From Gammaproteobacteria bacterium (GTDB lineage Bacteria > Pseudomonadota > Gammaproteobacteria > JABABF01), in the NCBI GenBank assembly GCA_965237805.1, contig OZ250153.1, positions 1,333,816 to 1,397,815 of the forward strand: DNA of 64,000 nucleotides, given 5' to 3'. Positions 20,926-30,325 of this stretch are shown here, one piece after another. The notes beneath the pieces are model-generated. The model ran no database searches. It was given only the letters and a program-made list of their open reading frames with translations, and was not told the origin of the DNA. Position 1 is the stretch's first letter; each line of letters begins with the position of its first letter. The position numbers and the translations under genes are program-made.

Positions 20926-21525
20926 CTAGCAGGGAGGGTTGGCGATGATGGTGTAGTGGAGGACGACGGCACCTGGCGGATTGCAGATGAATGTGCCGCC
21001 GCAGGACAGGCTAAAACCCGCTGGGCAGTAGGTGGCTCGGTAGACGAAGTGCACGCCACATTGATCCCATGGGCACGGGCCGGTCGGATTACCGTAGGCA
21101 TCCGTACACTGCCGGTAAGAACCGCCGACCCAAGTCCAGTCTCGATCCTTGACTTCGCAGACTGCCAGTGCCGGGTCATTGGGCACCCGTGCGAGGAAAC
21201 TGTCGAATTCCGTCTTGCTGCCTAAGAAGACGGCGATGTCTGCGTCGTGGTTATTGATGATCCGCCACGGGTAGGGCTTGGGTTCGATATAAGGCGATAG
21301 TGCCCAACGTGCGACCACGGTGCCCGAACTATGAGCTGGCACGCGCATGATGTCGACATCGTCGGGGAAGTTCCCGCAGTCCAGATAGATGCTTCGAGAC
21401 AAGGATTCTGGGCAGGTCCATGCCGCCGATGGCGCGCCCCTTAGTAGCAACGGCAACAGGGTGCCGAGTGCGCTCAGCACCAAGGCGGTCGCCACCATGT
21501 GCATGAATGATGCATTGCGGTTCAT
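20926..21525 (-). CDS. Secreted Cys-rich protein occupying the PilM position of R64/PAPI-1-type pil operons.
   Basis: Signal peptide [29 protein letters not shown]; many Cys. It is the last gene of the co-oriented pil cluster; its start overlaps the upstream stop (ATGA). Confidence 0.45.
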
Positions 21526-22217
21526 GGTGCGTAGATGAAGCGCTGGGCGCGGAATTCTGTCACTGAGAGTTGATCTGCCTCGACGACATCAGCGCTCAAT
21601 CTGCCCGTGCCGTCCCGGTTGCGCACGCTCACCACTGCCTGCCCGGTGGTGCTGATCGATTGGGTGTTGGCGATGGCATGTCCACCCAAGTCCAAGTGGC
21701 CGGTCATCGGTCGCGAACCGTCTAGCGGCAACAGCGACAAATGCGTGTTCTCGGTGCCTGGTCCGGGCACGATCACGGTGACAGTTGCGCTGACCACAGA
21801 GGCCAAGGGTCGCAATAGCTGTTGCAGCTGTAGCGCCTGTGCGTCGCTGTCCACTTGGGTGACGATGGCCAGCTGGCGCTCCATGAAAATCTCGATGCTG
21901 TAGGGATTTCCAAAGCCGTTGCGGTTGACCAAACTGCCCTCCAGCCCTAGCGCCTGCTCCATGACGTTCAAGTCCGTCGGCCAGTGCTGGTGCTGTTGGT
22001 AGTATGAGATGGCCAGCTCCGCCACCAGCTTGGCACCGGCAGCCGTTTGCTCTATCGCTTGGCTTTCCAAGCGGCGCTGCAGAGCCGGATAGTAGTAGCT
22101 GGCCAGCAGCGAGAGGATGCCCAGTACCGCAGATAATTCCAGCAGGCTGAAGCCCGCCACGCGACGGTAGCGCAGCGCTTCAGTGCAGAGCACAGACATC
22201 GCTATCAGCACTCGCAT
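21522..22217 (-). CDS. Prepilin-like protein (minor pilin/adhesin, PilV position).
   Basis: Type IV prepilin N-terminus RRVAG|FSLLELSAVLGILSLLAS, with E at +5 after the G cleavage site. Confidence 0.6.
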   Translation of the reverse strand: MRVLIAMSVLCTEALRYRRVAGFSLLELSAVLGILSLLASYYYPALQRRLESQAIEQTAAGAKLVAELAISYYQQHQHWPTDLNVMEQALGLEGSLVNRNGFGNPYSIEIFMERQLAIVTQVDSDAQALQLQQLLRPLASVVSATVTVIVPGPGTENTHLSLLPLDGSRPMTGHLDLGGHAIANTQSISTTGQAVVSVRNRDGTGRLSADVVEADQLSVTEFRAQRFIYAP

Positions 22218-22617
22218 ACTGACGCAGAAATTGCCGCTGGTGGCTCGCGCTGGGTAGCCGTTTGGCCACTGGTAGCGGCAATTTCAGTGCGCCACCATCG
22301 GCTTTGCCCTGGAAGCGGTTCGCCAAGCGTTGGGCGTGGCGTTGGGCGACGCCACGCAACTCGAGATGTCCGGCACCACCGGTAAATAGCGTTGCGCTCC
22401 AGCCATGGTTGGCGCGGCTAGAGACCGCTGGCAATACCAGCGGCACGTTGCTCGCCGTGCCGACACAGTGTTCGAGGTAACTGGAGCGAGCCGATACCAG
22501 CACCGCTTCCAGTGCGGCCACCTGCTCCAAGTAGACGGCCTCATCCTGATGCCGTAGCCAGATCGTGCCCAGCAAGCTGCCGATGCCGAGTGCTAAGCCG
22601 AGCTCAGCCATGTTCAT
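22180..22617 (-). CDS. Pilus-cluster hypothetical protein (PilT position; no transglycosylase motifs seen).
   Basis: 145 aa; hydrophobic N-terminus MNMAELGLALGIGSLLGTIWL. Overlaps its neighbours by 4-38 nt, as in an operon. Confidence 0.35.
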   Translation of the reverse strand: MNMAELGLALGIGSLLGTIWLRHQDEAVYLEQVAALEAVLVSARSSYLEHCVGTASNVPLVLPAVSSRANHGWSATLFTGGAGHLELRGVAQRHAQRLANRFQGKADGGALKLPLPVAKRLPSASHQRQFLRQYASADSDVCALH

Positions 22618-28958: not shown

Positions 28959-28963
28959 GTCAG

Positions 28964-30325
28964 CTACTTCGGCTCCCCGCTGCGTCTCGGCGCGTAGCGA
29001 GGTGTAAAATCGACCGTCCGGTCACGCATGTTCAGCGTTGGCTGAATGTCGTAACTTTCCAGCAAGTTACTCAGGGCTTGTTCGGCATCGGCCGCTGGCA
29101 CTTGGTACTCGTAGGGGATATCCCAGTCGTATTCATAATCCCCATCTGCGAGTAGCCATTGCCCCACGCGCAGGGAGAAGCTCTCGAGCAGGCGTTCAAT
29201 GTTGGCTTTGAGCGAGCCTTGGCGCACAGTGAAATGGCCAGTTTTTGGCAGATTATCGGCGCTGTCAGCTACCGCGCTACGCAGTTGCTGGCAGTTGGCT
29301 GTGCGATCTGGTGATTGGGTGCCGCGCAATTCGATATCCACACCGTGGCGTAGTACAGCCGTTGGCTCCCGATGGTTGGAGACGCTTGTCTCGACGACGA
29401 TGTGTCCGCGCCGTACCCCGCGTTGTTCCAGCGCTTCTGCCACTGTCTGTGCCCGCTTGCGTGCCTGCTCGACGGTGGCCCAGCCAGCATGGCTGTGCGA
29501 GTGGCCGCGTACCACTAGCCGCAAGTCCCGTGTACGTGCCGCTGCACTTGCTTGCTGGATGGCTCGGTGCGCGGTATCGCCGAGGGTGCGGAATTCGGCC
29601 AAAGAAAAGGGCGCGAACAGTATTTCCCGCTCGACTGGCGCGGTAGAGCGGTACTGCTCCAAGAAGCGCTCCAGCCACTGCTCGTCGCGATATTCCGGGC
29701 GGATGCGCAATTGCAGGGTGCGGCCCAACTCGTTGACATGCACCCCCCAAGCGATGCCGATCAAGGCGTTGAGGCCAGACAGCAACGGCACTGGCCCCAA
29801 ATCCCGCAATGAGGCGGGCAGGGGTTGGCGGAACAGCAACTGTTGCACCAGCAGGCAATTCTCCTGATCTCGGTGCCCCAGCCGGTAGCCTGAGCGTGCG
29901 AGCAATTCGACGACTGCTTGCCCGATGGTGCTGATGCTGTCGCCGAAGGCGATGCGCATGGTGGCGTCTAAGGGTTGGCGTTGATCGGCTCGCGCCGCAC
30001 CGTGCGCCCAAGTGTATCGACCGTCACGCAGATAGGGAGCACTACCAGTCGCCGCTCGCTCGTCGGTGGCTACCCGACCGTCGCGCTGGTCGTCGCCGTG
30101 CGATGGTGCTTCCCACCGTTCCTCGGCGGGGCTTTCGAAGGCATCTGCGTCATCCACTCCGCCAGCGTGACTCAGCACGACCCCGCCACAGAGCAGTAGG
30201 CAGAGACAGACAACGGTAGCCAATTTCCAGCTGCTGTTGCGATGGAGCCTGCATCCGTGCATCGTGCCCTTCCCTGAGCCGCACCCTGTCCCGTGTCGTA
30301 CTCGGTGGCTTGCCAGCCCCGCCAT
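28964..30325 (-). CDS. PilL-like pilus biogenesis protein (first gene of the pil cluster); may start at internal MHG ~30262.
   Basis: N-terminal hydrophobic/Cys-rich segment WKLATVVCLCLLLCGG. C-terminal region with an OmpA/TcpQ-like pattern RLVVRGHSHSHAGWATVEQARKRAQTVAEAL. Confidence 0.45.
   Translation of the reverse strand: MAGLASHRVRHGTGCGSGKGTMHGCRLHRNSSWKLATVVCLCLLLCGGVVLSHAGGVDDADAFESPAEERWEAPSHGDDQRDGRVATDERAATGSAPYLRDGRYTWAHGAARADQRQPLDATMRIAFGDSISTIGQAVVELLARSGYRLGHRDQENCLLVQQLLFRQPLPASLRDLGPVPLLSGLNALIGIAWGVHVNELGRTLQLRIRPEYRDEQWLERFLEQYRSTAPVEREILFAPFSLAEFRTLGDTAHRAIQQASAAARTRDLRLVVRGHSHSHAGWATVEQARKRAQTVAEALEQRGVRRGHIVVETSVSNHREPTAVLRHGVDIELRGTQSPDRTANCQQLRSAVADSADNLPKTGHFTVRQGSLKANIERLLESFSLRVGQWLLADGDYEYDWDIPYEYQVPAADAEQALSNLLESYDIQPTLNMRDRTVDFTPRYAPRRSGEPK

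Follow-up and report, generated by a model that had tools for sequence, protein, structure and literature searches.

A type IVb pilus operon of the R64/PAPI-1 class in a core-chromosome setting: probable domestication of a conjugative-element pilus in a clade of small-genome Gammaproteobacteria

How does the pilus machine of a conjugative element come to lie among housekeeping genes, with none of the element's transfer genes around it? The question is raised by a 64-kb stretch of gammaproteobacterial DNA (contig OZ250153.1 of assembly GCA_965237805.1, positions 1,333,816 to 1,397,815; hereafter the window), in which ten open reading frames (ORFs), all co-oriented on the minus strand at 20926-30325, form a cluster of pil-like genes. 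A preliminary description had offered two explanations, a domesticated pilus or the remnant of an integrative and conjugative element (ICE). Here we present a comparative analysis which makes it probable, as far as sequences can tell, that the cluster is a functional type IVb pilus operon, derived from an ICE, domesticated, and inherited vertically in a clade of uncultured, small-genome Gammaproteobacteria. The clade conserves the cluster without transfer genes nearby, one gene of the ICE backbone has stayed next to it, and a distant cluster of the same variant was found on a PFGI-1-class ICE backbone.

Taking the most plausible start codons, six of the nine gene junctions are 4-nt overlaps (ATGA or GTGA), and the others measure +5, +52 and -38 nt; read from the first gene, the order is +5, -4, -4, -4, -4, +52, -4, -38 and -4. 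Genes spaced in this way have the arrangement of one operon with coupled translation. None of the ten ORFs is disrupted, and a scan for promoters and terminators gave no signal above shuffled expectation.

For the class assignment, profiles built from eight orthologous clusters were aligned by hhalign with the proteins of pKLC102, the plasmid form of the PAPI-1 family, which served as the positive control. On this sequence evidence the cluster is an R64/PAPI-1-type type IVb pilus machine rather than a type II secretion system (T2SS), a type IVa pilus, or an MSHA or Tad system, as had first been proposed: the best family matches are to PilL and PilN, and the equivalog models for the competing systems (GspD/E/F, PilB, MshL, TadA) score far below cutoff and are weaker or partial compared with PilN and PilL2. 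The cluster holds none of the accessory genes GspC/L/M, PilMNOP or TadBCZ. Membership of the class does not extend to its usual family signatures, however. Six Pfam families which the pKLC102 controls match strongly (TcpQ, Secretin_N_2, PAP_PilO, PilS, Shufflon_N and PilM) were matched by no window protein or orthologue, so that most of the sequence-family tests passed by PAPI-1/pKLC102 proteins are failed by the proteins of this cluster.

Two of the proteins are predicted outer-membrane components. The first gene of the operon (28964..30325, minus strand; its true start may be an internal ATG at 30262) encodes a PilL-like, outer-membrane-associated protein with a PilL N-domain, an OmpA-like domain and a possible TcpQ/STN-like C-terminus. 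Its residues 100-204 score 75.9 bits (cutoff 64.15) with NCBIfam TIGR03748, the model named 'PFGI-1 class ICE element type IV pilus protein PilL2', and the profile aligns with pKLC102 PilL2 at 99% by hhalign. The OmpA-like peptidoglycan-binding domain (residues 250-313 in the window) is present in all seven PilL orthologues. None of the seven matches TcpQ (PF10671), which the preliminary description had named as a check and which the pKLC102 control matches at 64 bits; two match STN weakly, and the C-terminus aligns in register with TcpQ proteins at an hhalign value of 33%. The second gene (27498..28958, minus strand) encodes a lipoprotein secretin (PF00263) with a lipobox, whose Cys20 is invariant in 14 homologues. 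Its best NCBIfam match is PilN (TIGR02520), at 129.9 bits and below the equivalog cutoff of 287.65; hhalign with PilN2 gives 99.5%, and Secretin_N_2 is not matched, unlike in the pKLC102 control. When 72,556 plasmids were searched by tblastn, every match to the secretin was a PilN-family secretin; identity was 26% at most, and the matches lay mostly on conjugative plasmids.

The assembly ATPase and its platform are recognizable by family. PilQ, of the GspE/PilB class (24183..25688, minus strand), matches T2SSE at 215.8 bits, carries the Walker A sequence GPTNSGKS and a tetracysteine motif of two CxxC pairs, and aligns with PilQ2 at 100% by hhalign. PilR, an inner-membrane protein of the GspF/PilC class (23152..24186, minus strand), matches T2SSF at 53.6 bits and PilR2 at 97.4%.

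The protein at the PilO position (26278..27501, minus strand; 407 aa) could be placed by structure instead. It has the architecture and fold of PilO2, a bitopic assembly protein of the PilO2/BfpC type, with a cytoplasmic actin-like domain, one transmembrane helix and a GspL-like periplasmic domain, and its best structural match is the cytoplasmic domain of PilO2Bp from Tfp7 of B. pseudomallei (PDB 4bz0). An early AF2 model made from a 4-sequence alignment had a pLDDT of 57 and gave meaningless Foldseek matches; it was discarded. The PilO2 family PF06864, which the pKLC102 control matches at 187 bits, was matched by none of 8 orthologues or 40 remote relatives, and hhalign gave 7%; the 40 remote relatives match no other Pfam family either, and PDB sequence searches with the PilO profile were empty. 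Word-indexed searches with this protein or an 8-sequence profile yielded 2-3 matches, and an exhaustive hidden Markov model (HMM) search was needed to recover the family, which comprises 58 relatives of 380-450 aa among 1.84 billion representatives, 12 of them close and about 45 remote. Next to it, the PilP-position gene (25685..26281, minus strand) encodes a periplasmic protein with a signal peptide, a coiled coil and a C-terminal beta domain; it is conserved in all relatives and matches no Pfam or NCBIfam family. Its C-terminal domain aligns in register with PilP2 at a probability of 37% by hhalign, and its identity as PilP is a matter of gene position.

The distal part of the operon holds the pilins. 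The PilS-like major prepilin (22614..23099, minus strand) is preceded by the 52-bp gap and a strong ribosome-binding site, AAGGAG. It begins MSPHTHPLHPPRAAHQSG/LNLIE, the slash separating the leader from the mature pilin of about 143 aa; the leader of 18 residues, the non-Phe residue at +1 and Glu at +5 (G/LNLIE) are typical of type IVb pilins, and the protein ends with a C-terminal Cys pair. PilS2 is matched at an hhalign value of 76% over 119 columns, and PF08805 is not matched. The PilV-like minor prepilin (21522..22217, minus strand), with the processing site G/FSLLE and the N-methylation match N_methyl/TIGR02532, aligns with the 203 N-terminal columns of pKLC102 PilV2 at 95%. At 231 aa against the 442 aa of PilV2, it lacks the shufflon-type C-terminal region, and Shufflon_N (PF04917) is matched by the control and not by this protein.

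Between the two prepilin genes, at the T position, lies a protein of 145 aa (22180..22617, minus strand) which begins M-N-M-A-E-L-G-L-A-L-G-I, with a pilin-type hydrophobic helix straight after Met1, Glu at position 5 and no leader. The ORF cannot be extended upstream, and the M-x-x-x-E5 start is kept in 9 of 9 orthologues examined, including that of the ICE-borne locus L017. Family scans and hhalign revealed no ATPase domain, no SLT domain and no similarity to PilM2 in this protein, so that the cluster has one ATPase only. The last gene, at the M position (20926..21525, minus strand), encodes a Cys-rich secreted protein with a signal peptide and a conserved CPE...DCG-FPDDPDIMRVPA motif; it matches no family and bears no similarity to PilM2 (PF07419), whereas the control matches PilM at 89 bits. 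For the PilO-, PilP-, T- and M-position proteins, sequence homology to their counterparts in pKLC102 and on Variovorax, Vogesella and Salmonella plasmids was not significant.

The preliminary description is thus borne out in its components: ten co-oriented genes, mostly with 4-nt overlaps and two gaps, including a lipoprotein secretin, a GspE ATPase with a tetracysteine motif, a GspF platform, a prepilin with a long leader and a second prepilin. Its gene names were too exact. Of the series pilL-N-O-P-Q-R-S-T-V-M, the letters L, N, Q, R and V are upheld by hhalign to pKLC102, whereas T (neither an ATPase nor a transglycosylase), M (unlike PilM2) and largely P, which is positional only, are not. 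The family check proposed for PilL and PilN came out above cutoff for the former, and for the latter gave PilN as the best match, below cutoff.

Comparison with known systems brings out what is shared and what has changed. Like the pil2 operon of PAPI-1/pKLC102, which belongs to PFGI-1-class ICEs with an MPF_G transfer system, the window cluster is a ten-gene co-directional operon opened by a PilL N-domain protein, and both encode a PilN secretin, a PilO2-fold protein, PilQ, PilR, PilS and a PilV-type prepilin. Neither operon encodes a prepilin peptidase; PAPI-1, which has none of its own, relies on the host PilD (PMC8565334). Identities between the two sets of proteins do not exceed about 30%. 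Where pKLC102 has PilT2, a 313-aa T2SSE ATPase between pilS2 and pilV2, the window has the 145-aa pilin-like protein; the window PilL has an added OmpA-like domain and no recognizable TcpQ domain, PilV has half the length of PilV2 and no Shufflon_N, and the T- and M-position genes are unrelated to their pil2 counterparts. The R64/IncI1 thin pilus and the pil operon of Salmonella SPI-7 are machines of the same class, with PilL, N, O, P, Q, R, S and V. R64-type clusters carry the prepilin peptidase PilU, the lytic transglycosylase PilT (the small gene at the T position in IncI-type clusters) and a PilV shufflon with Rci, all absent here: scans of the cluster and the window turned up no domain of the Peptidase_A24, SLT, Shufflon_N or recombinase kind. 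Tfp7 of B. pseudomallei, a chromosomally fixed R64-variant type IVb cluster, is found genus-wide and off any ICE and has a small gene (PilM2) between pilS and pilV (PMC3984277).

SPI-7 is a precedent for the reuse of a conjugative-type pilus in adhesion; biofilm is mentioned in PMC3984277. An ICE-free chromosomal pilus of the R64/PAPI-1 class is accordingly not new in principle, given Tfp7 and SPI-7, and the orphan status of the cluster is less unusual than the preliminary description had implied. New are the PilL-OmpA fusion, the loss of PilT2, the leaderless pilin-like subunit, the Cys-rich secreted protein and the half-length PilV, together with the retention of a BisC-family gene, considered below, and the divergence of the assembly proteins beyond the reach of family models.

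What surrounds such a machine bears on whether it could still be the pilus module of an ordinary, mobile ICE or island extending past the DNA examined. The gene for FdxA (20456-20854) flanks the cluster on one side, and moaA, smpB and tRNA-Gly(CCC) lie on the other; farther out, the core genes include the 16S rRNA gene and polA, 8 kb away, on the fdxA side and birA, coaX, ispB and pgi on the opposite side. No integrase, relaxase, type IV secretion system (T4SS) or A24 peptidase domain was detected in any ORF scanned across the 64 kb, and neither an MPF_G T4SS nor a MOBH relaxase was found there. The GC content of the cluster is 0.613 compared with 0.593 for the window, and its GC at third codon positions (GC3), 0.66-0.75, is in the housekeeping range of the window, which points to long residence in the host. 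No att-like direct repeats and no copy of the tRNA-Gly 3' end were found bracketing the cluster. The tRNA gene lies about 4 kb away and smpB and moaA stand in between, because of which we abandoned the idea of an island integrated at tRNA-Gly. In these respects the first account of the setting (core flanks by domain and RNA scans, no transfer genes or prepilin peptidase, GC matching the genome) holds.

A still-mobile element would draw support from the nearby tRNA gene, from the backbone gene that adjoins the operon and from the ICE- or plasmid-borne location of distant relatives. Core genes on both flanks, the conservation of this neighbourhood in a relative, ameliorated GC and GC3, the lack of att-like repeats, the genes intervening before the tRNA and eight relatives without transfer genes nearby all speak against it, and we consider it very improbable.

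Immediately past fdxA, at 17271-20365 on the minus strand, a low-GC block (0.49-0.50) adjoins the cluster; it encodes a double GT2 glycosyltransferase of 772 aa and has an ORF of 262 aa that matches no family. The block is compositionally unlike the pilus genes and is not kept beside fdxA in the relative L011.

One gene of the neighbourhood is nevertheless an ICE gene. At 30415..30942 (minus strand), 89 bp upstream of pilL, lies a gene for a DUF2857/BisC-family protein (PF11198, 70 bits against a cutoff of 36.8), whose start is likely the second ATG, after AAGGAGG. It had been missed when the cluster was described as free of ICE genes and outside any recognizable ICE; of that claim, the core-chromosome location and the absence of transfer genes stand, and the absence of any backbone gene does not. 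BisC is a DUF2857 protein, the FlhC-like subunit of the BisDC activator which switches on transfer competence of ICEclc by activating transfer-competence promoters, and the only member of the family that has been studied functionally (PMC7423338). DUF2857 has a fixed place in the module parA-parB-DUF2857-DUF1845-ssb-topB, which borders islands of the clc/PAGI type (PMC3334931). By analogy, the window protein is a putative FlhC-like transcriptional activator subunit kept from an ICE backbone, and regulation of the operon, if any, would be through this protein rather than through TprA as in PAPI-1/pKLC102. ICEclc BisDC has a BisD partner, whereas the window cluster has none. A PDB sequence search with the DUF2857 profile was empty.

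The gene is part of the conserved unit. It stands beside pilL in the window and in L004, L007, L008/9, L011 and L019, is divergent from pilL or one gene away from it in L006 and L010, and was not detected at L001 and L003, the loci of the relatives having been read within +/-10 kb of the pilus cluster. The orthologues in relatives also match PF11198.

An origin from an ICE is suggested most directly by a remote member of the PilO family, P0031 (loci L016/L017), in which the same variant cluster lies directly behind a PFGI-1-class backbone. The order in L017 is DUF2857, a replication protein of the STY4528 family, a PFL_4669-family protein (TIGR03761, 167.9 bits against a cutoff of 110.7; also Pfam AcaB), a single-stranded DNA-binding protein and a topoisomerase, much as ssb and topA precede pilL2 in pKLC102. 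L017 shares the peculiarities of the window cluster: its PilL, which scores 90.8 bits with TIGR03748, includes an OmpA domain, the pilin-like product beginning M-S-F-S-E has no leader, PilV is short, and there is a Cys-rich protein with FPDDPNILR. Identities to the window proteins are 26-35%. Another remote member of the PilO family has a plasmid-like context with parA and csrA.

The simplest history that would connect these states begins with an ICE of the PFGI-1/PAPI-1/pKLC102 class integrating in a forebear of the clade. Its transfer genes (T4SS, relaxase, integrase, ssb, topB and AcaB-like) would then have been lost, as would whatever separated DUF2857 from pilL, and DUF2857 and the pilus operon kept and inherited vertically.

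The two ICE-borne copies occur in one high-coverage sample (~190x), and each is split by a DDE transposase, located at 14331-15599 between pilR and pilS in L016 and at 4701-5780 inside the topoisomerase gene in L017. This suggests insertion sequence activity and possibly ongoing decay of the element.

Vertical descent was examined through the relatives of the window. The secretin has 16 detectable homologues in a collection of 5.8 billion proteins, and, besides the window, the cluster is carried by L001/2, L003, L004, L006, L007, L008/9, L010, L011 and L019; cluster and DUF2857 occur together in at least eight related genomes or contigs of ~1-2 Mb. The contigs of the relatives and three GTDB species representatives include chromosomes and contigs of 1.0-2.1 Mb. 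None of eight relatives has a T4SS, relaxase or integrase within the distance read.

The neighbours of the cluster in these genomes fall into three groups: polA with priA (common to L007 and L010), an FMN reductase with acs (common to L001, L003 and L008), and moaA-smpB with fdxA, or else restriction and defence genes. L006 has priA upstream and the FMN reductase and acs downstream, and the window has polA 8 kb away. Such overlapping contexts would fit a single ancestral site that was rearranged later on, rather than separate insertions. L011, the closest sampled relative with a full cluster, at 77% identity, keeps the core neighbourhood of the window; its pil proteins are 61-82% identical to those of the window, and the flanking housekeeping proteins 69-83%. 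Across four genomes, the identities of PilQ, PilN and Acs fall in the same order (87/87/91%, ~64/57/77% and ~56/50/67%), and the GC content of the cluster tracks that of each host over a range of 0.47-0.66. This tracking, the parallel divergence and the absence of att repeats point to long residence in the chromosome.

Side by side with this stability, the surroundings vary. L008 and L009 (1-7500), from one sample, have identical pilus clusters and downstream genes and different restriction/defence sets upstream of DUF2857, with an M78 peptidase, DUF4411 and DUF4357 in the one and EcoRI-type methylases, GmrSD, DUF4145 and Fic in the other; the difference marks a variable defence hotspot adjoining the cluster. 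Genes for N6/N4 or C5 DNA methyltransferases lie no more than a few kb from the cluster in several relatives (L006, 2926-3930; L007, 18244-20646; L010, 21050-21434), and that of the window, at 52173-52994 on the minus strand, is 22 kb away.

The same comparisons bear on whether the operon is alive. An inert, decaying remnant of an ICE, from which no pilus is made any more, might be suspected because the transfer genes are gone, no prepilin peptidase lies in the window, and the sequences are so divergent that they fail most Pfam family models. Decay would nevertheless be hard to reconcile with ten intact ORFs in translationally coupled overlaps, with the same gene set in lineages whose Acs proteins are only ~67% identical, with pil protein identities comparable to those of housekeeping genes, and with the preservation of the Walker A sequence, the CxxC pairs, the prepilin G and E+5 and the lipobox Cys; moreover, a useless 10-kb operon would be unlikely to persist in genomes of ~1-2 Mb. 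We judge an inert remnant quite unlikely.

If the operon is functional and domesticated, as we favour, how would it work? Homology is demonstrated by sequence, and the functions that follow are extrapolated from GspE/F/L-type machines and from R64/PAPI-1 pili. The BisC-like protein would activate transcription of the operon. PilQ would hydrolyse ATP on the PilR platform, held by the actin-like domain of the PilO2-like protein, and together they would form the inner-membrane motor. The periplasm would be bridged by the PilP-position protein, together with the GspL-like domain of the PilO2-like one, as far as the PilN lipoprotein secretin, the predicted outer-membrane pore, and PilL, as the partner of the secretin, would tie the complex to the peptidoglycan through its gained OmpA-like domain. 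PilS would be matured by an unlinked host prepilin peptidase, as in PAPI-1, and would polymerize on a complex, at the tip or as a primer, in which the PilV-like pilin joins the leaderless pilin-like protein. The Cys-rich protein is a candidate tip-associated or secreted partner. Because the second ATPase, PilT2, is missing, the fibre is probably not actively retracted; and since there is neither PilT2 nor a T4SS to serve, the most likely role of the pilus is in adhesion or aggregation, on a host surface or among sister cells, and not in the stabilization of mating pairs.

The distal end of the operon is also its variable end. Orthologues of the Cys-rich gene occur in L001, L003, L006, L011 and the ICE-borne L016/L017, and L007, L008 and L010 either lack it or have additional pilins in its stead. 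L008 has two additional prepilin genes, and L010 (15863-20596) has tandem copies of a pilS-T-V module, encoding pilS-like (169 aa), leaderless pilin-like (188 aa) and pilV-like (237/239 aa) proteins, with a 228-aa gene separating the two copies. Such variation at the tip/accessory end would be the pattern expected of an adhesive, surface-exposed structure.

It has some bearing, too, on the idea that the machine is a secretion device for the product of the last gene, in the way that TcpF and CofJ are exported by the TCP and CFA-III type IVb systems. The Cys-rich protein has a signal peptide and a conserved motif, and its gene, which would be co-transcribed with the operon, is kept even in the ICE-borne version. 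Its absence or replacement in three relatives indicates that it is not essential, it has no similarity to TcpF or CofJ, and the idea is pure analogy; a dedicated secretion role appears decidedly unlikely. Somewhat better placed, and yet unlikely, is a role in DNA traffic, either as a competence or uptake pilus or as a helper in donor or recipient functions with ICEs in trans. The ancestry in a conjugative mating pilus would agree with it, as would the priA and polA genes adjoining the cluster in several relatives and the ICE-borne copies of the variant in samples with accession numbers close to those of several relatives. On the other hand, there is no retraction ATPase, neither comEA/comEC nor a T4SS lies nearby in the window or the relatives, and the adjacency of priA and polA is most simply inherited synteny.

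Several observations count against a functional, domesticated adhesion pilus. BisC normally acts with BisD, a ParB-domain BisD partner was found neither in the window nor next to the BisC-family gene in the relatives, and regulation of the operon is purely inferred, from position and family. The PilP-, T- and M-position proteins are without demonstrable homologues of known function, and no prepilin peptidase was found in the 64 kb or within +/-10 kb of the cluster in relatives. Pili of the TCP type, which are type IVb pili, retract without an ATPase. Finally, a host-associated lifestyle of the clade is no more than hinted at by the small genome, the separation of 16S from 23S and the low-GC genes for tetratricopeptide repeat (TPR) proteins.

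Beyond domestication as such, we tentatively put forward a more specific reading, which we think possible and would not yet bet on. An ICE mating pilus and its BisC-type switch would have been captured once by the ancestor of the small-genome, possibly host-associated clade and kept for a cellular function such as attachment to hosts or sister cells, in a make-up without a described counterpart: a PilL-OmpA fusion anchored in peptidoglycan, a leader-free pilin-like subunit, a dedicated Cys-rich secreted partner and no retraction motor. The wider family, of about 58 PilO-like cluster representatives among the 1.84 billion, none covered by Pfam, might then be an eighth type IVb variant that has gone unrecognized, carried on ICEs and plasmids and also domesticated.

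Other features of the window stand apart from the pilus. Between the DUF2857 gene and moaA, a 486-aa ORF (31137-32597, minus strand) without a family match occurs only in the closest relatives, L004 and L011 (as two gene calls in L011), at 47-50% identity, diverging faster than its neighbours; for these reasons it was left out of the system. The 16S rRNA gene (14397-15930, minus strand) is complete and followed by tRNA-Ile (14076-14152), with no tRNA-Ala or 23S after it and genes for an Fe-S assembly protein, a methyltransferase and polA beyond; 16S separated from 23S is a split rRNA operon, common in reduced genomes. At 50410-51690 (minus strand), two TPR-repeat proteins are encoded in a low-GC patch (GC 0.44, GC3 0.40; window 0.59) and were probably gained by horizontal transfer; repeat proteins resembling those of eukaryotes are typical of bacteria associated with hosts. 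A giant protein of 1892 aa (2616-8294, minus strand) has two M23 peptidase domains, InlB-type B-repeats and a CARDB domain, and two ORFs without family matches, of 224 and 317 aa, come after it. A weak 60-nt tRNA-like Rfam match (36862-36921, minus strand; 33 bits, barely over the gathering threshold), 85 nt from tRNA-Thr and not called by ARAGORN, may be a tRNA fragment.

The locus opens no new class of system, Tfp7 and SPI-7 being precedents, and its value is rather that of a clean comparative case for the exaptation of a mobile-element organelle: one divergent pilus variant is documented in three states, behind the backbone of a PFGI-1-class ICE, in plasmid-like surroundings, and as a chromosomal fixture with only a BisC-like gene left. 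Current family models miss the PilO2-like, PilP-position, leaderless pilin-like and FPDDP Cys-rich proteins, so that pili of this kind go under-annotated in metagenomes. Should the clade prove host-associated, the operon would be an obvious candidate colonization factor, in genomes with hardly any space for genes they could do without.

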